From the IMG/VR virus record IMGVR_UViG_3300045988_067569: a stretch of DNA of 64,000 nucleotides; one strand, written 5' to 3'. Source of the stretch: a virus. A program made the position numbers and the translations under genes. Shown piece after piece: positions 2,135 to 64,000 of the stretch. Below the pieces are notes generated by a model, which was given only the letters and a program-made list of their open reading frames with translations, ran no database searches and was not told the origin of the DNA. Position 1 is the stretch's first letter, and every line of letters begins with the position of its first letter.

Positions 2135-2944
2135 TTATTTACAAACGTCTATTACAGTTAAGTTCTCGTTGCTGGGACGATAATTAATATCCCTATGAGA
2201 ATTAGATACAATAACCTGGTCAAAATTATTACACATATTAATCAGACCTTTATCATTAACTGCGTGACATACGATTATGATAAACTTGCTATTTGGATAT
2301 CTCTCTTTGAGAACCTTAAGCTCTCCTAGGAAAGTTCCTCCGGCATCACACAAGTCATCAATGAACACAAATGTAGAATAGTAGCAATTCTTAGACTCCT
2401 CTATTTCAAAGGACTCAATTCTTCCAGTCTCTAGATTTCTTTCCTTTTTGAAGACTAAATAACCATAGTGAGAATAGTTACTTCCATATCTGTCCTTCGC
2501 CCCATGGTCTGGGAACACGATATTACTTTGGGCTGGAATCCAAGAGTGGTGTCCAAATTCCCAAGGTAAACATCTGTCACCAAGAAGATGAAAAGTTCTA
2601 CTAGAATGTGCCTCAAGAACATATATGTTTCTATAGCCTAAGCTATTTAACATATTACATACTACTTTCAAGGAGAATGGACGATTAAAACTCATTACTC
2701 TATCCATACGCATAGACATTAAATAAGTAATGTGTAAATCCCATTCTACTTCTTGTCTATCTAAAATATCTCCTACTTGCACTAAGAGGAATAAATCCTC
2801 AGTATTAGATATTCTACAAATGACATCAATAGATTCCTTTCTGTTTAATTCCTCAGTAAGGAAAAACTGAGGCTCTCCATCAGGAAATCTAGTAACATCG
2901 TACTTAATTTCACTGATTTCCTTGTTGATTAAGTTTAATTTCAT
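2135..2944 (-). CDS. phosphoribosyltransferase-fold protein, PRPP-synthetase-like (candidate ADP-ribose pyrophosphate synthetase, Adps)
   Basis: PRPP-binding-type motif FVFIDDLCDAGGTF in the C-terminal half; FPDHGAKDRY motif; lies beside the NAMPT-like gene. Confidence 0.55.
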   Translation of the reverse strand: MKLNLINKEISEIKYDVTRFPDGEPQFFLTEELNRKESIDVICRISNTEDLFLLVQVGDILDRQEVEWDLHITYLMSMRMDRVMSFNRPFSLKVVCNMLNSLGYRNIYVLEAHSSRTFHLLGDRCLPWEFGHHSWIPAQSNIVFPDHGAKDRYGSNYSHYGYLVFKKERNLETGRIESFEIEESKNCYYSTFVFIDDLCDAGGTFLGELKVLKERYPNSKFIIIVCHAVNDKGLINMCNNFDQVIVSNSHRDINYRPSNENLTVIDVCK

Positions 2945-3374
2945 CTACTACATATTTTAAGATTTCATAACTTTCTTCCAGACCTGCCCTATCATCTAGG
3001 AGGATATTGTAATAAGGTTTCTTAGATTTAGAGAATATAGAACTACTAATGTTTGGAGCAGATAAAGTATTAGAAGTAATATTTGCTATTCCTAATCGCA
3101 TACAAATTGTCTGCTTTGCCATAATTTTATAATCATCTTCATCAGTGGTGAATAAAATCATTTCAAAACCTAGAAGTGAGCATTCTTTAAGTAGTTCTAT
3201 AACGCAACTATAATCTCCGCCAGTATTATGGTAATCGAAAATAGTATTATCAAAATCGAAAGCGACTATTAGCTTTCCGTATTTATGATACTCTTCTAAT
3301 AGTCGTTTCTTGCAAGCTTCTTTCCCAAAAGGATGATTAAAGTCCATGGTCAATTCTTTGTCTGATTTCTTCAA
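2910..3374 (-). CDS. HAD-superfamily phosphatase-like protein
   Basis: DxDxT motif (FDFDNTIFD) near N-terminus. Confidence 0.5.
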   Translation of the reverse strand: MKKSDKELTMDFNHPFGKEACKKRLLEEYHKYGKLIVAFDFDNTIFDYHNTGGDYSCVIELLKECSLLGFEMILFTTDEDDYKIMAKQTICMRLGIANITSNTLSAPNISSSIFSKSKKPYYNILLDDRAGLEESYEILKYVVDEIKLNQQGNQ

Positions 3375-4887
3375 GAGAATATTCTTTCTTCAAGATACCA
3401 TCTTCAAAGACAGTCTCTAAGCATCCCTCTTTTTCCTCCTCGATTGAGACCTGGTCGGTAGCAGTATACTTCCCATCCAGACATTTATAGACAGCAATCA
3501 AACCTTTCAAAGAGTTCTTAGTACCATCATCAGTTTTAGGATGTTTGAAGATTTCTTTCAATTCGCCATTTACTACGCAAGCAGTAGCCTTAATAGCAAA
3601 CCCAAGACTATCTCTACTTGCATACTGATAGGAATATGAACCTACTCCCAGAACGAGATTACAAGCCGCCATATGAGCGTTTTCTAATCTCAAGTAGATT
3701 TGCTTTTGACGTTCCAGAGTAATAGAATCTCCATAAAGCAGACCAACCTTAGTGCTAGGATAACGGTAATCCTTTGAAGTAGTATTCCATCCGAAGATTT
3801 TACCAAGCATATAATATGCCCCATAATATTGACCTTCGGACACTTCAACATACTCTGCATCGTCGTTAAACGGAGCATAGCAGCAATAATACTTACCTTC
3901 TTTCATTCTGGTATTGAAGTGAGGATTAGTTCTCAACCCGCAGATTATATCTACTGGGTCTCCACTATCAGGACGGATTACTACTCTACCATCACGAGCC
4001 ATAATGTCTTTCTTCAGCTTGGGCAAGAAATTTTCAATTACATTCCAGAAATCCCAAGTATCAGATACAATAGAAACAAACCCAGAAGGATACAAATCAT
4101 TAATTAGACGTTTGAAAGTGCCCAGCTCATCTTCCTCCCCTCCAGCACACATTACAGAGTGTTCTGTTGCTGGAACTGTAGCAGCAATCAATTCCTCGTC
4201 TGAATTAGCTCCATAATATTCTTCCAAAGCAGCAATAGCTGGAATAGTTTCACTTCCCACAAAAGAAGTCATATGCGCCATACCAGATATAATTGCGGCT
4301 TCCATTCCCGCCATACCTCGCATTGAGAAATCATGACAACAAAAACCAAGATTTACATCTGTTGGAAAACCAGTCTTGCAAGCATGACGATGTAGCTCTT
4401 TCTTATAAAGCCTAGCTCTAGTAGCAGATGTGCATGGCATCCACAAGGTACAGCTGATAATAGTCTCTAAGTAGTTAGTTAACCAAAAGAACTCGGGTAG
4501 AGTATTTGTAATGGTCATCATGGGAACCCGAATAGGGCACACAGAACCTTCAGGAAGAGCCTTTATGCGAATTGGTAGATACCCAAGGTCATATAAAGCT
4601 TCAATATGTCTGTACCCAACGGATTCAATACCAACAAAGTTGTTTACTCTACGATAGAACATCTCCACAGCTTCCTTCTTTGGTAGATTAAAGAAGTTTT
4701 TCTCAAACTGTTTAATGAGATATTCTTTGATTAGGTATTGAATACCAAATACTACTGAACCTTCGGTTGCTTCTGGGAAGTATTTATTACTTCTAGGAGT
4801 CCAGTTACTATAAACTTGTTCAGTACCTTCGGGGTACATTCTGTGATGGCCCAACTTGTAACCATCTGTAGCATTAATTATTTCCAT
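3337..4887 (-). CDS. nicotinamide phosphoribosyltransferase family protein (NadV/Namat-like)
   Basis: 516 aa; N-terminal ATDGYKLGHHRMYPEGTEQVYS matches the NAMPT signature ATDSYKVTHYKQYP. Confidence 0.8.
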   Translation of the reverse strand: MEIINATDGYKLGHHRMYPEGTEQVYSNWTPRSNKYFPEATEGSVVFGIQYLIKEYLIKQFEKNFFNLPKKEAVEMFYRRVNNFVGIESVGYRHIEALYDLGYLPIRIKALPEGSVCPIRVPMMTITNTLPEFFWLTNYLETIISCTLWMPCTSATRARLYKKELHRHACKTGFPTDVNLGFCCHDFSMRGMAGMEAAIISGMAHMTSFVGSETIPAIAALEEYYGANSDEELIAATVPATEHSVMCAGGEEDELGTFKRLINDLYPSGFVSIVSDTWDFWNVIENFLPKLKKDIMARDGRVVIRPDSGDPVDIICGLRTNPHFNTRMKEGKYYCCYAPFNDDAEYVEVSEGQYYGAYYMLGKIFGWNTTSKDYRYPSTKVGLLYGDSITLERQKQIYLRLENAHMAACNLVLGVGSYSYQYASRDSLGFAIKATACVVNGELKEIFKHPKTDDGTKNSLKGLIAVYKCLDGKYTATDQVSIEEEKEGCLETVFEDGILKKEYSLEEIRQRIDHGL

Positions 4888-8039: not shown

Positions 8040-8474
8040 TTAATCCCACCAAGACCTCATACGTTCAAACTTTAGTTTGTTGTATAAGTACCAGGCTTTT
8101 TCTCTTCTCAGATAATCTTTAAGGATTGGGGTATTCCAATCGAGATCAGCAGCCTTAGAGTGGAATCGATTCCAATTTTTAGTATTTATGTGTCTATCTA
8201 CAAATCCCTTTGACCCAGGTCTAAAGTCATGGTGATACGCAGAATCTATTTCTAGCACAATATCTAATAGCTTTAGTGCTAGATTTAGCTCTTTTTCGAC
8301 ACGTTCATTGCCTTCCGCAATTCTAGATACCTTAAAGTATTCATACATTCTAATTAGGGCTTGTTTCTCTAAAGAGAGAACAAATCCATAATCGAATGGA
8401 TAAAACTTCATAGCTTCTTTGATAAGTTTCTTATTCTTATTCTTTCTTAGTTTCATATTCCTGACTTGCTTCAA
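8040..8474 (-). CDS. hypothetical protein
   Basis: ORF track. Confidence 0.4.
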   Translation of the reverse strand: MKQVRNMKLRKNKNKKLIKEAMKFYPFDYGFVLSLEKQALIRMYEYFKVSRIAEGNERVEKELNLALKLLDIVLEIDSAYHHDFRPGSKGFVDRHINTKNWNRFHSKAADLDWNTPILKDYLRREKAWYLYNKLKFERMRSWWD

Positions 8475-8880
8475 CTGCTAATTTATCTGCGAGATTATTC
8501 ATCTGAGAAAAGAAGTCTGAACTTGAAGTATGTCCTTTCACCCAACAAAAGTCTATATTAGGACAAAATTGCTTTGCCTTATTTAAGACCTTGTCGTATA
8601 AATTCCATAACTCTACATTCTTCTTTCTTTTCCATCCTTTAGTAGCACATCCTATGACGTACTGAGAATCTGAGTAAATAGTCAGAGATTCGATTTTACG
8701 ACTTACTGCATTTAGAGCATAAATTACTGCTAACAACTCACATTTATTATTAGTAGTATTAGGAATCATCTTACTAAATTCATAGGCTTTTTCCCCATCA
8801 ATTACGAATACAACTCCTACTCCTCCTGTGTCTCTAGACGAGCTAAAAGCTCCATCAGTGAACACTTCTAGCCTGCTCAT
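8437..8880 (-). CDS. rnhA: ribonuclease H
   Basis: RNase H layout: FTDGAF near the N-terminus, internal CELLAV block, C-terminal WVKGHT motif. Confidence 0.8.
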   Translation of the reverse strand: MSRLEVFTDGAFSSSRDTGGVGVVFVIDGEKAYEFSKMIPNTTNNKCELLAVIYALNAVSRKIESLTIYSDSQYVIGCATKGWKRKKNVELWNLYDKVLNKAKQFCPNIDFCWVKGHTSSSDFFSQMNNLADKLAVEASQEYETKKE

Positions 8881-18660: not shown

Positions 18661-18797
18661 AGATAAGTTTAATTAATTTTAATGACAGTGTGATATGCAA
18701 GCCATTACACCACAGCCTCGAAAATGCAGGTATTTATCTCGTTACACCTGCGAGTCCGGCAATCCTTTCTTATATACCGCGTGAGCTGGCGGTTTTG

Positions 18798-18871
18798 TAG
18801 GGCTAATCAGACTTGAACTGATAACCTCCACATTATCAGTGTGGTGCTCTAACCAGTTGAGCTATAGCCCT
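18798..18871 (-). tRNA. tRNA-Ile(GAT)
   Basis: acceptor AGGGCTA/TAGCCCT, D-arm TAGCTCAACTGGTTAGAGCA, anticodon stem CCACA/TGTGG with loop CTGATAA. Confidence 0.8.
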
Positions 18872-18875
18872 ATTA

Positions 18876-18960
18876 TGTGGACCTAACGGGAGTCGAACCC
18901 GTGTCCAAACAACCCTCGTTACAAGGATAACGTGCGTCTCATTTTTATTATATCAGCTAG
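18876..18960 (-). ncRNA. tRNA-like 3' element (hairpin CCTT-GTAACG-AGGG, T-arm ACGGG/TTCGACT/CCCGT, acceptor 3' strand TAGGTCC-A)
   Basis: no adjacent 5' half; a GGGCCTA that could pair with it lies about 520 nt upstream at 19428-19434; homologous to the element at 29395-29471. Confidence 0.4.
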
Positions 18961-19479
18961 GGAGTTCTAGCATTTAGGTAGTTTTATAAGTCTTACAAGA
19001 GTCCATACTAAGTATTTCTCTAGATGCTTATCTACAAGCTACCAAACTATAGGGCTGACCGAAGTCAACGTTCCACCACTCCATTTACGTTGGAGAACGG
19101 GATGATACTTTAGAGATTCGTCACATCTCACGGAACACATCTTCCATCTGTTTTATGACGTAGGAGATTCAGTCTTACTAACTCTTAGAGTGTTCTGATT
19201 AAGAGCATATTACTAGGATTAGAGCCTAGCTCTCCATTATATCAATATACTCAACCTCTTCTGTTTCTAGGTCTCTCCCGTAACCCGACTTAGTTAATAG
19301 TGTTTACCAACAAGCCAGCAGCTTAGGCTGCCATTCTTACTTCGCTATAAGTAGCATTTATTGTTTTTTCTTCGTTTAAAGAGATTGCGCTCTACACGTC
19401 CTTATAATTTGTAATCGCCTGTCAAATCCAAGTAGGCCCATACCCAGTTTATCTTTAATTAGAAAACTGGAAAAAGAAA

Positions 19480-31004: not shown

Positions 31005-32978
31005 TTACTTCACTTCTTCAAACTCAGTTGTTTCAGCTTTCTTCTCCTCCAACTCTTTCTTGCCGAGAACACTTTTCAGTGTATCAGCGAAAGGTATAGA
31101 GCGAAGCAAGTCGAACGCAGGATTCAAGTTCTCAGCAGTTTTAGCCATGAAGTTACCAGCGGTATTCTCGTTACCATAAACAGTAACCTGTCCAAGGTGA
31201 ACGTGTTCAAACATCTGAGCAGATGCTTCTGCAATACCTGTCAACTGGTCAACTGTCTTGTACTGAACCACCATTTCAGGAGTCAAGCCAGATTCAATCA
31301 TCTTCTCAACTGCCAAGGCTGGAGCCATTTCGATAGCTTGAACCTTATCAGCTTCTGCCATCAATGATGCTCTCTTACCTTCAGCTTCAGCAAGCAATTT
31401 CTTGCGAGTACCTTCTGCCTCTGCTTCTAACTGCAGTTTAGTAGCGTCAGCTTTCGCTTCTGCTTCTTTCAAAATCTTTGCAGCTTCTGCTTCTGCTTCC
31501 AATACCGCTTTGGCTTTAATTGCTTCTGCTTCAATAGTTACTCTCTCTTTTTGTTTCTGAGCAGGAACAATCATTTCAGCTTGAAGTTTTGCTTCCTCTG
31601 CCTTAGCAGCAGCTTCGTTAACCTCAATCTGGCGTTCTTGTTCTGTTTTGGCTACAGCCATTCTTGCTTCTACTTTAGAAGTACCAGCTACCTTTTCTGC
31701 TTCAGCTTGTGCCTGTGCAGCTTCTCCTTTTGCCTTTGATACTTCAATAGTTGCTTTCTGCTCAGCTACTCCAGCTTGCTTGTCAGCTTCTGCAGCCTTA
31801 ATTCTCTTCTGAGACTCATACTCTGCAGTAGCAGCTTCTTGCTCATTAATTGCTTTCTGAGTGTCTGCTTCCTGCTTTTGCTTAGCTTGAGCAATACGAG
31901 TTTGCTTCAGAGCTTCAGCTTCAGCTTTCTTAGAATCTGCTTCTGCCTTAGCTTTAGCTACATTAGCTTCTGCTTCTGCGTCAGCAGCAGCTTTCTTAGA
32001 AGCAGCCTCTGAAGCGGATTTCGCTACATTAGCTATTCTCTGAGATTCAGCTTCAGCTTTAGCTGATTCTGCTTGAGTGTTTGCACGAGCAATACTAGCT
32101 TCTTGTTCCGCCTTCTGTTCAGCGATACCAGCTTGTTTGTTCTTTTCTGCTTCTGCCAAGCGAATAGCTTTCTCCTGATTAATCTCAGCAACCTTTACTT
32201 CCTGTTCTTGCTTAGTTTGAGCAACTGTAGTTTCTCTTTCCTTTTCAGCATCGGCTACGGCAATCTCACGCTGTTTGTTGGTTTCTGCAATCTGAATATC
32301 TCCTTTCTTCTTCTCTTCTGCAATGTCAGCCTGTGCCTGAGCAAGAGCTTTAGTTGCAGCTTTCTGACCAAGATTCTTGATATAGTTTGCATCGTCCGAG
32401 ATATCAGCGTTGTTAATATTGATAATACTGAAACCTACCTTGTTCAACTCAGTTTCAATATTCTCTTTTGCCTTGCCGATAAATTTGATTCTATCAGCAT
32501 TTATTTCCTCAATCGTCATTGTTGCCATCAAGCTTCTCACTTCACCAATGAGAATATCCTTGATTTGGTCTGAGATTTCAGAAGTTTTAGCTGTTAAGAA
32601 TCTGCTTGCAGCGTTTTGCATTAGTACTTGATCGGTTCCTATACCAGTAGTTAATGTCACAGGAATCCTAACCTTAATCATTTGGCTGGATACTCCCTCT
32701 ACCATTACCTGAATCTGAATAGGTTTCAAGGACATTTTAGCCCAGTCTTGAATGACAGGCATTACGAATGTACCTCCGCCGTGGATGATTTTAGACGGCA
32801 GTATAACTTCCTCCGTTTTACCAGTCTTCTCGTTAACTACCTTCTTCTTTCCTGCCTTACCAAATACTACCAGGATTTCATCACTAGCACACTTACGATA
32901 CCGAGACAAAAGTCCGATAAAAGTTACAACTACTAAGAGTACAATAACACCCGCTACAATAAGAGTTTCTGTTGTCAT
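31005..32978 (-). CDS. flotillin-like SPFH-domain protein with long Ala/Glu/Lys-rich coiled-coil repeat region
   Basis: N-terminal TM helix, SPFH/flotillin-like core, about 350 aa of AEAEAK-type repeats. Confidence 0.65.
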   Translation of the reverse strand: MTTETLIVAGVIVLLVVVTFIGLLSRYRKCASDEILVVFGKAGKKKVVNEKTGKTEEVILPSKIIHGGGTFVMPVIQDWAKMSLKPIQIQVMVEGVSSQMIKVRIPVTLTTGIGTDQVLMQNAASRFLTAKTSEISDQIKDILIGEVRSLMATMTIEEINADRIKFIGKAKENIETELNKVGFSIININNADISDDANYIKNLGQKAATKALAQAQADIAEEKKKGDIQIAETNKQREIAVADAEKERETTVAQTKQEQEVKVAEINQEKAIRLAEAEKNKQAGIAEQKAEQEASIARANTQAESAKAEAESQRIANVAKSASEAASKKAAADAEAEANVAKAKAEADSKKAEAEALKQTRIAQAKQKQEADTQKAINEQEAATAEYESQKRIKAAEADKQAGVAEQKATIEVSKAKGEAAQAQAEAEKVAGTSKVEARMAVAKTEQERQIEVNEAAAKAEEAKLQAEMIVPAQKQKERVTIEAEAIKAKAVLEAEAEAAKILKEAEAKADATKLQLEAEAEGTRKKLLAEAEGKRASLMAEADKVQAIEMAPALAVEKMIESGLTPEMVVQYKTVDQLTGIAEASAQMFEHVHLGQVTVYGNENTAGNFMAKTAENLNPAFDLLRSIPFADTLKSVLGKKELEEKKAETTEFEEVK

Positions 32979-32993
32979 CTTTAAAAATTCTTT

Positions 32994-33521
32994 TTAGTTA
33001 AAATAATACTTTCCATTCTCAAATTTTGAAATTCTCACTTTGTCCCCGTTTTTATACGTCTTATGCTCTTCTTCAGCATAAGCTGACAATTCTTGAAGCA
33101 TTCCATTTATCTCAACTAAGATAACAGAACTACCACCAGAAATATCATTAGGGATAGTGATTGTTCCAATTCTCCCAACTAAGGCTTCACCCTTTTCAGG
33201 AATAACTTGATGTTGGAGTTTTAAACAAAGTTTATATAAGTAGTAAAGTATAACCACAAAAAGAATACCGCATATTAATGCGATTAAATAATCGTACCAT
33301 TCTATAGAATGAGAAACGGAATGCTTAATACAAAGCCATCCACTTGCTCCCATTACAAAATGTACTAGTCCTTTAAAAGAGACAATATCACTCACATCCA
33401 TGTCCAATTCTCCATCTAAATCTACATCTAAGTCAGTGTCGCCACCAAACCAAGAGAGTATGAACTGAACAATAAAAATGCCATACGAAATGGCTGCTAA
33501 GAGATAATAAGTTTCGCTCAT
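32994..33521 (-). CDS. NfeD-like membrane protein (typical operon partner of SPFH/flotillin proteins)
   Basis: N-terminal TM helices plus a C-terminal soluble domain; sits immediately downstream of the flotillin-like gene. Confidence 0.55.
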   Translation of the reverse strand: MSETYYLLAAISYGIFIVQFILSWFGGDTDLDVDLDGELDMDVSDIVSFKGLVHFVMGASGWLCIKHSVSHSIEWYDYLIALICGILFVVILYYLYKLCLKLQHQVIPEKGEALVGRIGTITIPNDISGGSSVILVEINGMLQELSAYAEEEHKTYKNGDKVRISKFENGKYYFN

Positions 33522-34506: not shown

Positions 34507-35067
34507 TTAGTCAAGCCATTCAAATTCTTCACCCTTGAAATGTCTTGCAAAACAAGCATCGAACACTAGCTTTCCAAACTGGGTTGATACGTATTTGGCA
34601 ATCTCTTCAGATTTGCACGCAAGCATCCCGACAAGGGAATAGGCAAAGCCGACGCCAGAGTCAGAATCGAAAGAGCCGAGACCCGCACCGCCGCCAGTAG
34701 CCGCGGGGCCGCCCACCAACGCGAATTTCTCGCCCTGATAACGGAAGTGACCAATGACTTCTGCATCCTTCGGAACTGATTTCATTCTAAAGAAGCGAAC
34801 CCAGGGATACCATATAGTACCAGTTAACAGATTGAACTTGTGACCTTCATTTAGCGCATCCAAGACTGTCTGCAACTTAGCTAGAGAATTTACAGATCTA
34901 TTGTAGTAAATAGTATCTCTAGTAACACACCCTAGATAGTTTACAGCATCCTCATAGGTTCTTATCCGTCCCATAATGTTTTCTGGAACGATTTCAACAT
35001 TGCCAGTTTCGGCATTATAGATGGGTTTATAACCATCTGGACATTCAATTTCAATTGTCTTTTTCAT
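34507..35067 (-). CDS. remote DGR target protein (C-terminal variable region)
   Basis: the C-terminal FALVGGPAATGGGAGLGSFDSDSGVGFAYSLVG region is encoded by a GC-rich segment that matches the template repeat except at template adenines. Confidence 0.6.
   Translation of the reverse strand: MKKTIEIECPDGYKPIYNAETGNVEIVPENIMGRIRTYEDAVNYLGCVTRDTIYYNRSVNSLAKLQTVLDALNEGHKFNLLTGTIWYPWVRFFRMKSVPKDAEVIGHFRYQGEKFALVGGPAATGGGAGLGSFDSDSGVGFAYSLVGMLACKSEEIAKYVSTQFGKLVFDACFARHFKGEEFEWLD
34627..34722 (-). repeat. DGR variable repeat VR2 (remote, opposite strand to the template repeat)
   Basis: about 95-bp match to the template repeat at 62391-62490; every mismatch sits at a template adenine. Confidence 0.7.
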
Positions 35068-35177: not shown

Positions 35178-35642
35178 TTATTCGAATAGCGGCAGCAACT
35201 TCTTTCCTAGTATCTTCACCGCTTTCTGTACATCAGCTACAGTTCTAAAATAAACAACACCTGGATATTTTACGTTTTGATGCATAACGACGTACACTCC
35301 TTTTATATCAGTTTCCGTCTTTCCAGATAGAGAAGAACCCCTTCCAAGAAAATAGCCAGTATTACCTTCTGTTTTGATCCATCCTTTATTTAGATAGTTA
35401 GCAACTATTTGTAAACTAGCTAGAGAACTGAGTTGTTCTGTCATGCTTGGAGGACATACTAATGTATTCCAAAAACCATAATCTTCTTCAGACTCTACTA
35501 TCTCTTTAAAGGAAGGAATTAGCATTTCCTCACTAAATGCAGTAAGAGCTAATTTCTTCAAGTCTTCATTACCGCTTTCATACCATTCGCGTGCCTGCTC
35601 TAAAGTTACCTCAAGATAGGCTTTTGTCTTAATTCTATTCAT
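35178..35642 (-). CDS. hypothetical protein
   Basis: ORF track. Confidence 0.4.
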   Translation of the reverse strand: MNRIKTKAYLEVTLEQAREWYESGNEDLKKLALTAFSEEMLIPSFKEIVESEEDYGFWNTLVCPPSMTEQLSSLASLQIVANYLNKGWIKTEGNTGYFLGRGSSLSGKTETDIKGVYVVMHQNVKYPGVVYFRTVADVQKAVKILGKKLLPLFE

Positions 35643-60277: not shown

Positions 60278-60496
60278 ACAATATGGGAACAATTTATATT
60301 GAAGGACAGTTTAAGAGTTCTGCCAAACCAGTAAAAGTTGTTGGAGGAAGTATAGGAGGAGGCTCTGGAGTAGACTAGGAAGTTCTCAAGAACTATGCTA
60401 CTAAAGCAGAATTGTAGAAGGCTGTTGAGGACCTAACTGCTTCCATAGAGAGAATAGATCACGATGTAGTTGATGAAACTTTAATAATACAATGAT

Positions 60497-62314
60497 ATGG
60501 CAGCAATCAAATCTATAAAGGTTGGGGAAACCACATACGATTTAAAAGCTACTTACGATGGTGCTGGAAATGTTATAGATACGACATATGCCAAGGCTAA
60601 TGCAATTCCAACTAAAACTTCTTAGTTACAGAATGATAGTGGATATTTAACTGAGCATTAGGATATTAGTGAATTAGCTACTAAGGGTGAGCTTGAAGGC
60701 AAAGTAGATAAGGAGTTAGGAAAGGGACTTTCTGAAGCCAATTATACTGAAACTGAGAAGGAAAAGTTAAGTACTATAGCTAATAATGCTAATAATTATG
60801 TACATCCAACTACTTCTGGAAATAAACATATTCCATCTGGAGGAGCATCTGGATAGATGCTAGTTTTCTCAGCAGATGGTACTGCTGAATGGGCAGATTC
60901 AAGTTCTAAGCTAGAAGAGCAATTTACAGCGCTAAATGAGGCTTGGGAAGAATTGTAGAAGGCACAACAAAAGCTTGATAAGTAGATTACTGAGCTAAAT
61001 AGTAATATGGATTTATATTCCTATGGAGTAGAATGGGATGTTACAGTAGCATCTCCGGAACTTACTAGAATAGGTAATCCTTTGCTGCATAAATCTCTTC
61101 CTATTCAATCAGCGTATAGAGGTTGTGTAGCAAACAATGATGTAGTAAATTACTATCTGTTTCCAGATGACTGGTCTTATAAAGAAGACGGAGAAACTCC
61201 ATCTGTCTTAGATGGAACTGATGGAACAGTAAGAGTTAATACTCCTAAATTTTATGGAAAATCTGGCAGCGATGGAAACAAAAGATGGGTTAGAACTTCT
61301 ACTGTCAAAATTGATGATTCATGGGTAGAAATTCCTGAACTATTAATAGATGCATACAGAAGTACAGTTGATACCACAGTCTCCGCAACTCCAAAAGCTG
61401 TATCAGTAGTTAATACTACTACTGCATTTAGAGGTGGAGGAAATAGAGCTAACTACGATGATTATCTAACTACAGAATTAGAAACTAAGGATATATTCAG
61501 AAGTGATTTAGGAAAGCCTAGAACTAATATTTCTAGAGCTACTATGAGAACATATGCAACAAATGCTGGTTCAGAATTGCTATGCTATGAATATTACAAA
61601 TGGATATTCTACTGGAATTATGTCATTGAATATGCTAATTTTAATTCTTAGGCTGCCTATAATGCAGAGTTAACTGCGGATGGATATCATCAAGGGGGTT
61701 TGGGACCTGGAGTTACAGATTGGGCTAACGCAGCTACAAGTTGGTCAGGATATAATGCAACATATCCACTTACGCCTTGTGGTTACTGCAATGAATTTGG
61801 TAACTTCACTGGAGTAAAAGATTTAGTTATTCCAGAATGTACAGTTCAAGATGGCACAAATACAGTAGCAACTCATACATTTAAAGTACCTCGCTGGAGA
61901 GGGTTCGATAATCCGTTTGGAGACATTTGGACTAACCTGGACGGAGTAGTTATAGTGAGAGCAGCTGCTAATGAGATTAGCACTGTCTATACAACTACTA
62001 ACGTATCGGAATTTACCGACGTAGTTGGAGAGAAAACCGTTGCAGGATACGAAGTAGCATCTGATGGTTATATTAAGGCATTTGACTTAGGTGAAACCGC
62101 TGAAATAATTCCATCCGCTGTTGGAGGAAGTGCTACTACTTATATTTGCGATTACCATTACTGCAACGCAAGCAGCACAGCGCTTCGCACGCTGCTGGTG
62201 GGCGGCAGCGCGCCTGATGGCGGCGGTGCGGGTCTCGGCTGTTTCAATTCTGCCTTTGACGTCGGCGGTGCCGTTTCCGTTGTCGGGTTCAGGACTCTGA
62301 ATAGAGTATCTTAA
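60497..62314 (+). CDS. tail fiber protein, DGR target (variable region at its C-terminus)
   Basis: N-terminal fiber-like sequence HIPSGGASG-TAG-MLVFSADGTAEWADS; contains ORFs 61007..61651 and 61700..62314 joined by a TAG; C-terminus LLVGGSAPDGGGAGLGCFNSAFDVGGAVSVVGFR lies in the variable repeat. Confidence 0.65.
62189..62288 (+). repeat. DGR variable repeat VR1 (GC-rich island)
   Basis: about 100 bp at the 3' end of the target gene; matches the template repeat except at template adenines. Confidence 0.8.
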
Positions 62315-62390
62315 GATATACAATATAAAAATCGATTTAGATGATAAATCGTAGGATATTACTTCTAAAAACCGTTGATTGGCAAAAAAA

Positions 62391-62490
62391 GTACTGCTGG
62401 TGGGCAGCAACGCGAATAATGGCAGCAATGCAGGTCTCAGCTATTTCAATTCTAACAATGACGTCAGCAATGCCAATTCCAATGTCGAGT
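62391..62490 (+). repeat. DGR template repeat (TR), A-rich with many AAT/AAC/AGC codon-like triplets
   Basis: about 23 mismatches to VR1 by hand alignment; each falls where TR has A and VR1 has G, C or T. Confidence 0.8.
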
Positions 62491-62632
62491 TATTATATAT
62501 TTAGAAACATTTTATTATTTTTTTTTAGTTTGCTAAGTAATATCCTTGCCTCTAGGCAAAAGATAACGTAGTGTTGAATGAAGGGTGTTAGTAGGTTAAT
62601 TCTCGAACGCTTCCGATGAAATATATAAAAAA

Positions 62633-63906
62633 TTGAAACGTGTAGGATATTTGCACGAGAAAGTATACGCTGAAGATAACATCGAACTAGCTGACGATAA
62701 AGCTAGAAGAAATAAGTCTATTAGATGTGGAATCAAGCAGCATGATAAGAATAGATTAAAAGAAAATAAGGAATTATCCGATAAGTTAAGGGATTTGATT
62801 TATCAAACCTCTGAATATAGTACCTTTATAATATACGAACCTAAAGAAAGATTAATCTTTAGACTTCCATACTATCCAGATAGAATAACTCACCATGCTA
62901 TAATGAATATTATGGAGCCTATTTGGACTAGTATATTTATAGACCAAACATATTCCTCTATACGAAATAGAGGTATTCATAAAGTAGAGTATGATTTGTT
63001 TAAGGTGTTATAGAAACATCCAGAAGAAACAAAGTATTGCTTGAAAATGGATATAAAAAAATTCTATCCTTCTATAACTCACGACATTTTATACGAAATG
63101 TTATAGAGAAAGATAAAGGATAAAAAACTATTAAAACTGTTGAAAGAAATAATTTATTCAGCGAAGGGAGTTCCTATTGGAAATTATCTATCACAATTCT
63201 TTGCAAATTTATATCTGACATATTTTGACCACTGGGTAAAAGAGGAGTTAAAATGTAAGTACTACTTTCGATATGCTGACGATATTGTGATTCTTGGTAA
63301 TGACAAGAATTATTTGAGAAATGTATTAGTATCTATAAAACTATATTTGAAACAGGTTCTTAACCTAGAGTTGAAGCCTAATTATCAAATATTCCCTGTA
63401 GAAAGCAGAGGTATTGATTTCGTAGGCTATAAATTCTATCATACTCATGTTCTACTGAGAAAATCTATAAAAATGAGGATGTTTAGGCTTATAAATCTAT
63501 ATAAATAGAATAAGATTGATAAAGATGAATTGAATAGAAGAATGAGGTCTTATTTTGGATGGATGAAATTTTGCAACTCTAAGAACTTGCTGAGAAAGGT
63601 AGAGGAGTTAACTGGATTGAAATTCTCTAACTGGAATGGAAAAGAAGTTAACATATCTAAGTTTTATAATAAATATATTCACATTGTAGAGGTTGTTGAT
63701 TATGACAATCATTTTCGAGTGCATTTCATGTATAACAATAAACCCTACTATTTTAAAAGTAAGAATAGGAGATTACACTATTCTTTGCTTAGATACAAAT
63801 TTCCTATAAATTTTAAAATAACACCTTATGTTAGAGCCGAATAGAATACAAATGGACGTTTATCCTTAGACAATCCAAAAACTTGGGAACGGTACTTATT
63901 ACTATA
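62633..63906 (+). CDS. DGR reverse transcriptase (TAG-interrupted reading frame)
   Basis: RT motifs RLPYYPDRITHHAI, LKMDIKKFYPSI, GVPIGNYLSQFFANLYL and YADDIVILG (motif C), then GIDFVGYKF; about four in-frame TAG codons; TAA near 63904. Confidence 0.8.
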
Positions 63907-64000
63907 ACTATGATATAAAAGAAATTAGTGTTGAAGTACTTGATTTAGACAATACCATAAAAGAAAAAACTTACTATAGTTTTATCTAGGTATTATTAAA

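Follow-up and report, generated by a model that had tools for sequence, protein, structure and literature searches.

A two-target diversity-generating retroelement without a detectable Avd gene from a TAG-recoded, possibly crAss-like gut phage

Introduction

The prototype among diversity-generating retroelements (DGRs) is that of Bordetella phage BPP-1, in which the genes and repeats are arranged as mtd-avd-TR-brt. With the Bordetella reverse transcriptase (RT), misincorporation at an adenine depends chiefly on the base 3' of it, and dC is the prevailing wrong base (PMC12875486). The accessory variability determinant, Avd, is present in 74% of DGRs and missing from 26%, and an avd-less "Lineage 3" has been described; on about 20% of DGR RTs there are extensions, as long as 150 aa, in which no motif is recognised, and a second target within 50 kb is common in phage DGRs (Wu et al. 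2018, PMC5758913). How cDNA synthesis and integration take place in Avd-less DGRs is a question raised by the same study. Two-target DGRs are known from the tentaclins, proteins in which an N-terminal C-lectin domain carrying the variable repeat precedes one or more Ig domains (PMC10743442). For the Zeta crAss-like phages, DGRs that lack Avd and have amber codons within the RT gene have already been published, and tail-fibre targets only were reported for the non-Echekvirus groups (PMC12386605).

The locus described here lies in a 64-kb window (the whole stretch of DNA analysed) that is part of a ~186-kb genome, and it is very probably the DGR of a TAG-recoded gut phage of that size, possibly a crAss-like (Zeta-group-like) one. 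With the surveyed Zeta crAss-like phages it shares a genome of ~175-190 kb with 25-34 tRNAs and a GC content of ~34-36%, the recoding of amber codons together with a tRNA(CTA), amber codons inside the RT gene, a cassette in which a tail-fibre gene with the variable repeat (VR) is followed by the template repeat (TR) and the RT, and the GxxxSQ motif; most members of that group are also without AVD, and their RT C-termini are long and variable (up to 414 aa). In common with BPP-1 are the homology of the RT, the adenine-specific transfer, an AAY-rich TR, a receptor-binding tail-fibre gene that carries a VR at its 3' end and a structured RNA in the TR-RT spacer. As in the two-target tentaclin DGRs, a single TR supplies two phage genes that differ in function.

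Results

Genome setting and TAG recoding

The window was compared with ~60 related phage genomes of ~186 kb, the contigs of relatives being 183-193 kb long. Zeta crAss-like phages are characterised by tRNA-rich genomes of ~155-190 kb, block-wise amber or opal recoding, and a TerL and a portal of the crAss-like type. Membership of this group is possible; identity of TerL with its crAss-like counterparts is only 25-28%, and with that of unannotated faecal phage contigs it is 43-44%. Megablast against the GenBank phage collection, which lacks the named Zeta genomes, gave no near-identical or annotated relative, and distant blastn against that collection returned only three matches, all of them unannotated faecal contigs.

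In-frame TAGs number 16-28 per late gene and zero in long early genes, which marks a code switch. TAG interchanges with Gln codons across the relatives, and in the late block of the phage TAG is read as Gln. The suppressor tRNA(CTA) (Table 1) is nearest in similarity to the phage tRNA-Gln(TTG) and is accompanied by at least 26 other tRNAs. TAG occurs in frame six times in target gene 1 (60623, 60659, 60854, 60956, 60983 and 61649) and four times in the RT gene (63011, 63104, 63506 and 63842). Both ORFs are broken under the standard code and are readable only with TAG as Gln, and the suppressor tRNA(CTA) is needed for translating RT and target 1. The initial annotation had called the DGR complete; the elements that it named are all present, but the recoding and a second target gene had escaped it.

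Table 1. Features of the DGR and its surroundings (positions in the window)
Feature	Position	Strand	Remarks
Target gene 2, 186-aa acidic protein	34507..35067	-	standard code, without TAG
VR2	34625..34722	-	in frame, aa 117-149 of target 2
Suppressor tRNA(CTA)	43832..43904	+	ARAGORN and Rfam, 66 bits
Target gene 1, tail-fibre/tail protein, 605 aa	60497..62314	+	phrog_5302 match; ORF with TAG = Gln
VR1	62192..62289	+	98 nt, closes the 3' part of target 1; codes for LLVGGSAPDGGGAGLGCFNSAFDVGGAVSVVG
Candidate hairpin, 5 nt 3' of VR1	62294..62307		ACTCT-GAAT-AGAGT; weak
TR, non-coding template	62394..62491	+	98 nt, 28 adenines
Spacer RNA hairpin 1	62546..62559	+	TTGCC / GGCAA, loop TCTA; alignment and RNAalifold
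Spacer RNA helix 2	62583..62614	+	GGG.GT...GG with CT...GC.TCC
RT, 424 aa	62633..63907	+	TTG start 62633, TAA 63905-63907
RT catalytic part, aa 1-326 (fingers, palm, thumb)	62633..63610	+	three in-frame TAGs
RT C-terminal extension, aa 327-424	63611..63907	+	sense TAG 63842, TAA 63905-63907

One template repeat and two variable repeats

TR and VR1 align over a 98-nt core without gaps at an offset of 202 nt. The core holds 23 mismatches, and at every one of them TR has an A and VR1 another base (16 G, 4 T and 3 C), which leaves 23 of the 28 adenines changed. The chance that 23 random mismatches would all fall on 28 adenines is P = 6.7e-18. A 100-bp repeat with mismatches at template adenines only had previously been annotated at 62189-62288 and 62391-62490. 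The repeat is real, and tabulation by template base confines the differences in the core to TR adenines, but these coordinates lie 3 nt too far 5' and take in 26 mismatches, of which two are at non-A positions, both outside the true repeat. VR1 is in frame within the last ~40 codons of a tail-fibre-like gene, as had been proposed; it occupies codons about -41 to -9 of the ORF at 60497-62314 and ends 8 codons before the stop. Target 1 matches phrog_5302 "tail protein" over aa 147-601 (E = 3.6e-85), gave no match in the Pfam search, and recurs as a near-identical ORF in the relatives. DGRs display their VR on a C-type-lectin or an Ig fold; the C-type-lectin fold that the initial annotation had put forward for target 1 from a sequence pattern is putative, and for target 2 such a fold is a possibility. 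TR lies 142 nt upstream of RT and is without a credible ORF; a search between VR1, TR and RT found none. Read in the VR frame, TR contains 10 AAY codons, and mutagenesis of its adenines can reach no stop codon.

VR2 lies 27.7 kb from TR, on the opposite strand and within the standard-code block, and is followed by 39 more codons before the stop of target 2. It agrees with TR at 66 of the 70 non-A positions, and over its core (positions 5-96) all 24 mismatches are at TR adenines (P = 2.5e-18). Target 2 matches phrog_11581, a family of unknown function (E = 2.3e-15), and searches of Pfam and NCBIfam were without a match. Distant homology (BLASTP 4e-6, and alignment) connects it with ~156-aa DGR targets of other Bacteroidota phages, where these targets adjoin the RT. 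The neighbours of target 2 are auxiliary early genes, not structural genes. In the structural model its VR region has a pLDDT below 50, and the model, poor in this region, gave no fold match. Identity with a tentaclin was rejected on architecture, as the VR lies at aa 117-149 and there is no Ig domain.

Natural variation and the adenine context

Across the ~60 relatives almost all VR1 and VR2 sequences are unique. VR1 had a distinct sequence in 26 of 26 genomes, with an entropy of 1.28 bits at TR-A columns and 0.07 elsewhere. For VR2, 35 distinct sequences were found in 36 genomes (1.30 bits at TR-A columns versus 0.08 elsewhere). TR is almost invariant, with seven variants in 26 genomes and a mean entropy of 0.05 bits. 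The non-A TR variants T18, T30, T45 and T93 (contigs 061465 and 065173) reappear in the VR1 and VR2 of their own genomes, and so does the variant C8 of contig 059915. Because the VRs differ only at TR-A columns and share the non-A variants of TR, the element is active and one TR feeds both targets. Information flows from TR to VR1 and VR2, and both VRs are naturally hypervariable, which answers the call of the initial annotation to look for VR hypervariability across related genomes.

A TR adenine followed by G appeared as G in the VR in 423 of 454 cases among close relatives and in 106 of 115 among divergent relatives, that is ~93%, silent sites included. Since an A before G is nearly always copied as G, the AGC codons of TR become invariant GGC (Gly) codons in the VRs.

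Reverse transcriptase and spacer RNA

The RT matches Pfam RVT_1 (1e-19), phrog_1423 (2e-113) and, over aa 43-329, the BPP-1 bRT structure (PDB 8ub7, E = 4.7e-45); the next RT class follows at 1e-15. The motifs IGNYLSQ and YADD are found at aa 182 and aa 214. The enzyme is an RT of the DGR class, and these matches bear out the earlier assignment of an RT with canonical motifs to position 62633.

The RNA of the TR-RT spacer has a structure supported by covariation. Hairpin 1 is directly followed by a nearly invariant stretch, AAAAGATAACGTAGT (62559-62572), and its middle pair shows compensatory changes from G-C to A-U and U-A. Helix 2, which ends 19 nt before the RT start codon, has seven pairs, five of them changed on both sides. 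Pairing over the whole structure is 98.7%, compared with 39-58% with slid partners, and the observed covariation was reached by 0 of 500 shuffles. Rfam matched no family to the spacer between TR and RT or to the surroundings of the VRs. Of a BPP-1-type hairpin or cruciform 3' of the VRs, only the weak stem after VR1 was seen, with no counterpart at VR2; this AT-rich 5-bp stem overlaps coding sequence and is kept in close relatives and degraded in divergent ones. Neither a GC-rich IMH-like element nor a common hairpin was found 3' of both VRs. Apart from the stem, the one feature seen was a G/A difference that is fixed at position 95 of the repeat.

Absence of Avd and the C-terminal domain of RT

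Neither the window nor any relative examined has an ORF between VR, TR and RT, and no Avd gene was found in them, in agreement with what had been noted for the interval between the repeats and the RT. PF05635 (Avd) was absent among the 25 families listed of the 32 Pfam families matched by the 77 window ORFs, and the ORFs flanking RT have no PDB match. An acidic ORF downstream of RT and the ORF of the type seen in the relative L059 were each considered as an analogue of Avd and dismissed, with no Pfam or PDB match for either.

The RT extends ~98 aa beyond the end of bRT. This extension is basic (pI 9.9, the mean for Avd being 9.5) and is modelled with a confidently folded domain of ~77 aa, whose beta-beta-beta-alpha-beta topology weakly suggests an OB-like fold. 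A separate ORF of ~104 aa follows the shorter RTs in L059, L060, L061, L066, L068 and L077. An origin of the RT tail by fusion with a copy of this ORF is not supported: the BLASTP E value is 0.12, and hhalign places the two in the expected register but with E = 0.21 and a probability of 0.3%. A profile of the tail searched against 1.84 billion representatives retrieved RT fragments and deletion remnants only, and no stand-alone family.

Discussion

In the route that we propose, TR and its 3' spacer would be transcribed together as RNA, and RT would be made once the suppressor tRNA(CTA) reads TAG as Gln, presumably late in infection. RT would copy the TR RNA into cDNA with infidelity opposite adenines only, and the cDNA, by priming and integration steps that we infer, would replace the homologous 98-nt tract in VR1, at the tail-fibre tip, and in VR2, in the gene of the 186-aa protein. 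The 10 AAY codons would allow broad amino-acid variation and never a stop. The basic, possibly OB-fold-like tail of RT may, with the conserved two-helix spacer RNA, take over the nucleic-acid handling of Avd, and target 2 would have a biological role as a diversified protein. Taken together, a self-contained and Avd-independent retrohoming, in which Avd is replaced, NAG adenines go to G almost deterministically, a second and non-virion target is served and RT is gated by the code switch, is speculative and on balance rather doubtful. If it is true, the phage would hypermutate, in addition, an interface other than that of adsorption, such as a host-interaction factor that is secreted or acts inside the cell, and the AGC codons of TR would provide an invariant Gly scaffold with the AAY codons randomised.

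We give almost no credence to an RT of another class (that of group II introns, of retrons or of defence systems, for example Drt/Abi) that has a repeat nearby by coincidence. A weak resemblance to the RTs of group II introns and retrons and to Drt3a does exist, yet the scores against the NCBIfam group II intron, retron and Drt families are far under the cut-offs (113 versus 300, 70 versus 235 and 61 versus 200), and the Bordetella DGR RT is ahead by ~30 orders of magnitude. The motif, moreover, is IGxxxSQ and not QGxxxSP, and no intron RNA, msr/msd or maturase domain was found. The cassette could instead be an inactive relic, an old TR/VR duplication in which the VR differences arose by ordinary divergence or allele recombination. 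In line with decay, the VR2 of contig 058615 is out of step with TR, 8-18 non-A mismatches occur in L009, L018 and L026, adenines have been lost from some TRs (the TR of the window has G at positions 6 and 9), and RT remnants with internal deletions are present in public data. A relic is nonetheless very improbable, because RTs that are 99% identical go with VRs that are all different, and only at TR-A columns, a mask that ordinary divergence would ignore. Both VRs also inherit the non-A TR variants of their own genome, and the RT ORF is unbroken with its catalytic motifs complete.

For an active DGR, the missing Avd might still be supplied, as Avd itself or as another trans-acting accessory, from outside the 64-kb window or by the host, and the RT tail would then be an elaboration of the thumb. 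This is unlikely, as AVD genes occur in only two Echekvirus members among 43 Zeta crAss-like genomes (PMC12386605), genomes with avd-less DGRs are without avd elsewhere and an avd-less lineage has been described (Wu et al. 2018, PMC5758913), and the RT tail, which lies past the point where bRT ends, is modelled with confidence as a basic domain of its own. VR2, for its part, might be a decoy or fossil target that is rewritten only through retained TR homology and has no selected function. Target 2 has no assigned function and its VR region models poorly, VR2 is away from the C-terminus, and the gene sits among auxiliary early genes. What makes a decoy improbable is that the target 2 ORF is intact in 36 of 36 relatives despite constant rewriting, that its scaffold is conserved at 69-95% identity, that it belongs to a small-protein family of cassette-adjacent DGR targets in other phages, and that the design of TR keeps stop codons out of the VR2 frame as well. 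As for the near-fixed G at NAG sites, it could partly reflect selection for Gly or a repair bias, not the behaviour of RT.

Read as an active two-target DGR, the cassette is a clean example of a naturally working DGR without Avd. Its natural variants, ~60 for each target, provide a read-out, and the TR polymorphisms trace the flow into two genes. A 424-aa RT with an extra domain and a TR-spacer RNA of ~240 nt make it a compact candidate for reconstitution, and, should it stem from RT itself, the NAG-to-NGG rule would bear on template design for DGR-based mutagenesis tools. In annotation, gene callers that use the standard code break RT and target 1 at TAG, and a DGR finder whose scan is limited to the surroundings of the RT overlooks the distant second target.

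The locus departs from BPP-1 in that no Avd was found and RT has an extra domain of ~98 aa, in that there is no recognisable 14-bp GC IMH or GC-rich hairpin, and in that it has two targets, one of them distant, and genes that need stop-codon suppression; NAG adenines here go to G almost deterministically. Wu et al. 2018 (PMC5758913) give neither a fold for the RT extensions nor a covariation-supported spacer RNA. Unlike the tentaclins, target 2 is a single-domain protein of 186 aa that is free of Ig domains and carries the VR in its C-terminal half. Compared with the surveyed Zeta crAss-like phages, the RT is 424 aa long, and we read its C-terminus as a separate basic, possibly OB-like domain and not as variation of the thumb; in addition, a further active VR lies 27.7 kb away in a 186-aa non-tail gene.

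Repeat structure and adenine specificity

The largest direct repeat, found by direct reading of 60300-64000 together with a repeat scan, is a pair of 98-nt copies. The recomputed alignment of its two copies contains 23 mismatches, and at every one the downstream copy (template repeat, TR) has an A where the upstream copy (variable repeat 1, VR1) has G (16), T (4) or C (3). This means that 23 of the 28 TR adenines are altered in VR1; for 23 random mismatches in a 98-nt repeat, the probability of all falling on its 28 adenines is 6.7e-18. None of the TR codons is able to reach a stop codon. The initial annotation had placed the repeats at 62189-62288 and 62391-62490, with all mismatches at template adenines. 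The repeat itself and the rest of its description proved accurate, but the coordinates lay 3 nt too far 5' and so took in two non-adenine mismatches that fall outside the true repeat.

Features of the retroelement, its two targets and the surrounding window
Feature	Position	Strand	Remarks
Target gene 1	60497-62314	+	605 aa, 6 TAG codons
VR1	62192-62289	+	98-nt core
TR	62394-62491	+	98-nt core, offset 202 nt from VR1
Spacer hairpin	62546-62550 / 62555-62559	+	RNAalifold prediction
Spacer second helix	62583-62595 / 62603-62614	+	RNAalifold prediction
Reverse transcriptase (RT)	62633-63907	+	424 aa, TTG start, 4 TAG codons
phrog_11557 ORF	63853-64000	+	runs off the window
VR2	34625-34722	-	third repeat copy; 66 of 70 non-A TR positions agree
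Target gene 2	34507-35067	-	186 aa, no TAG; VR2 in frame, then 39 codons
ORF adjoining target gene 2	35178-35642	-	154 aa
Early-block auxiliary genes	2135-4887, 8437-8880, 31005-33521, 37963-38922	-	coordinates are our own assignment
Minus-strand block	~1-43 kb	-	long ORFs without TAG
Suppressor tRNA, anticodon CTA	43832-43904		between the two blocks, at the divergence point
Plus-strand block	from ~48.5 kb	+	up to 28 TAGs in frame per gene
tRNA, anticodon TTA	40577-40647	-	Rfam, 57 bits
RAGATH-14 RNA	40674-40880	-	156.6 bits, above gathering score
tmRNA-family match	18875-19439	-	62.6 bits (gathering score 47)
tRNA-Ile	18797-18871		abuts the tmRNA-family match

A small number of template positions have eroded. 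At 62399 and 62402 (TR positions 6 and 9) the window TR has G; of 25 close relatives compared, 24 have an A there. In contigs 059870 and 056908 further TR adenines have given way to bases of the VR type. The pattern points to occasional conversion of the TR by VR sequence, or to mutagenised cDNA homing into the template.

Two targets supplied by one template

Target 1 matches phrog_5302, annotated in PHROG as 'tail protein' (3.6e-85); sequence searches of Pfam and the PDB gave no match. When the entire window was scanned for agreement with the non-adenine positions of the TR, a third copy, VR2, was found 27.7 kb from the TR. Over repeat positions 5-96, all 24 of its mismatches to the TR are at TR adenines (P 2.5e-18). 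Target 2 belongs with a family of small hypothetical proteins of ~156 aa, which serve other Bacteroidota phages as DGR targets next to the cassette; its predicted structure gave no fold assignment, and an identification as tentaclin was rejected. The adjoining 154-aa ORF has an N-terminal motif in common with it (LASLQIVANYLNKGW versus LAKLQTVLDALNEGH) and no VR, and may be a non-diversified paralogue. Elsewhere in the early block, a pooled Pfam scan, which does not pair ORFs with families, named a NAMPT/NAPRTase-like gene, RNase H, an SPFH/Band-7 protein, an OmpA-like protein and a radical-SAM protein, auxiliary functions that are unusual in a phage.

Querying IMG/VR with the RT protein returned 306 related stretches, the closest in 183-193-kb contigs. 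The VR1 comparison took in the window and 25 relatives with a TR identity to it of 90% or more. All 26 VR1 sequences are distinct while the TR has only 7 variants, and VR1 entropy is 1.28 bits at TR-adenine columns versus 0.07 bits at the others. VR2, collected from 37 loci with the target 2 protein as query, is distinct in 35 of 36 sequences under the same mask (1.30 versus 0.08 bits). We paired the two data sets by contig as a tracer for information flow. Two genomes whose TR carries T at positions 18, 30, 45 and 93 have the same bases in their own VR1 and VR2, and the C at position 8 of a third TR likewise recurs in both of its VRs. These recurrences show that a single TR supplies both targets and that the element is active in the lineage; in a few genomes one component has decayed. 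The initial annotation, which called a complete DGR and suggested looking for VR hypervariability among related genomes, is upheld by the adenine-only mismatches, the RT matches and this hypervariation: the DGR is genuine, complete and active.

Adenines followed by G mostly appear as G in the variable repeats

TR adenines followed by G (NAG) show up as G in 423 of 454 VR copies from close relatives; for divergent relatives with different TRs the figure is 106 of 115. AAY adenines, unlike these, yield all four bases. Silent third-codon positions obey the same rule (CTA to CTG, GTA to GTG, GCA to GCG, GGA to GGG), and amino-acid selection is no explanation for them. Misincorporation by the Bordetella RT depends mainly on the base 3' of the adenine, and dC is the nucleotide predominantly misincorporated (PMC12875486). 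Taken with the silent sites, this makes a context-dependent property of the RT, here near-deterministic, the likeliest cause. The consequence is that AGC codons of the TR turn into the Gly codons that stay invariant in the VR scaffold.

Recoding of TAG

Under the standard code the frames of target 1 and the RT fall apart into pieces; with TAG as a sense codon the window separates into two blocks. TAG interchanges with CAA or CAG at six RT columns among close relatives, so it is read as Gln; the suppressor tRNA most closely resembles the phage's own tRNA-Gln. TAG terminates 12 minus-strand genes, so the standard code is in genuine use in that block. The code switch is sharp, from early minus-strand genes with TAG as stop to TAG-rich late plus-strand genes. 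ARAGORN predicted 25 other tRNAs, and a tmRNA-like RNA is also present. One well-scoring tRNA, without likeness to any other in the window, adjoins a RAGATH-14 RNA; with its anticodon TTA it would decode UAA, a stop codon. The tmRNA-family match spans 565 nt against a 374-position model and may be a phage-encoded tmRNA with an insertion.

The reverse transcriptase, its tail and the spacer

The RT matches Pfam RVT_1 (1e-19) and phrog_1423 (2e-113) and carries the DGR-typical IGxxxSQ and YADD motifs, which bears out its initial identification. Its best match among solved structures is the Bordetella phage DGR RT (8ub7, 4.7e-45). Group II intron and retron RTs rank lower (1e-15 or weaker), and it scores well under the NCBIfam cut-offs for the group II intron, retron and Drt families. 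Opposite its last TAG (63842), aligned relatives have Glu or Lys codons in ORFs that continue, which places the end of the RT at the TAA at 63905-63907. Many RT fragments in public protein sets arise because standard-code gene callers halt at TAG.

Compared with the Bordetella RT of 328 aa, the protein runs on at its C-terminus for ~98 aa. This tail is basic (pI 9.9), kept across the clade, and predicted with high confidence (pLDDT 88.8) to fold as a beta-beta-beta-alpha-beta domain. Its profile matched only 73 cluster representatives among 1.84 billion proteins; the 17 short matches inspected were mainly RT fragments or deletion remnants. Some relatives have a shorter RT followed by a separate ~104-aa ORF, of which the tail might be a fused copy. 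Sequence comparison and profile search did not support this, and the 17 inspected matches showed no likeness to the stand-alone ORF. Internally deleted forms also occur in public protein sets (proteins P0383, P0396, P0408, P0413 and P0428); in some, the tail domain is fused straight onto the N-terminal part of the RT or onto a peptide encoded by the TR.

As initially annotated, no Avd gene lies between the repeats and the RT: the stretches separating VR1, TR and RT hold no ORF, either in the window or in the relatives inspected. Nor does an Avd family occur among the matches listed (25 of 32 Pfam families, for 77 standard-code window ORFs). We propose that the tail may replace Avd. The 141-nt TR-RT spacer has a strongly conserved core, in which 6 of 12 predicted pairs show compensatory changes and pairing is 98.7% versus 39-58% with partners slid; none of 500 shuffles reached as high a covariation. 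Judging from its Bordetella counterpart, the spacer RNA probably serves to place the RT and the priming site. A 5-bp hairpin 3' of VR1 is weak and absent at VR2, and no IMH-like element was found 3' of the VRs.

The phrog_11557 ORF (function not annotated; motif LGNGTYYYNYDI; L001:7190-7585 in a related locus) is conserved and shares 55 nt with the 3' end of the RT gene. Its acidic product has no PDB or Pfam match. The ORF comes after the RT in every Zeta-like relative, and also in L077, a small phage that is unrelated. It may be linked to the DGR or may simply be the next structural gene.

Comparison with known systems

The TerL is distant kin of crAss-like terminases, and the phage resembles Zeta crAss-like phages in genome size, tRNA load, GC content and amber recoding. 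In a survey published in 2025, 18 of 43 genomes from this group had DGRs, with amber codons in seven RT genes, a GxxxSQ motif, C-lectin-tipped tail-fibre targets, variable RT C-termini, and AVD genes in two genomes only (PMC12386605). Wu et al. 2018 had already described an avd-less DGR lineage, C-terminal extensions in ~20% of DGR RTs, and phage DGRs with non-adjacent targets within 50 kb (PMC5758913); phage DGRs with two targets are also known (PMC10743442). In small phage contigs of 35-41 kb, a tandem pair of small targets (132-158 aa; L059:4904-5786, L061:4889-5779) lies directly upstream of TR and RT, and a ~104-aa ORF overlapping the RT stop comes next, a layout that differs from that of the window although the RT clade is the same. 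New here are the distant second target, the description of the RT-tail fold, the covariation-supported spacer RNA and the NAG-to-G rule, details of moderate interest, chiefly as a way into Avd-independent retrohoming.
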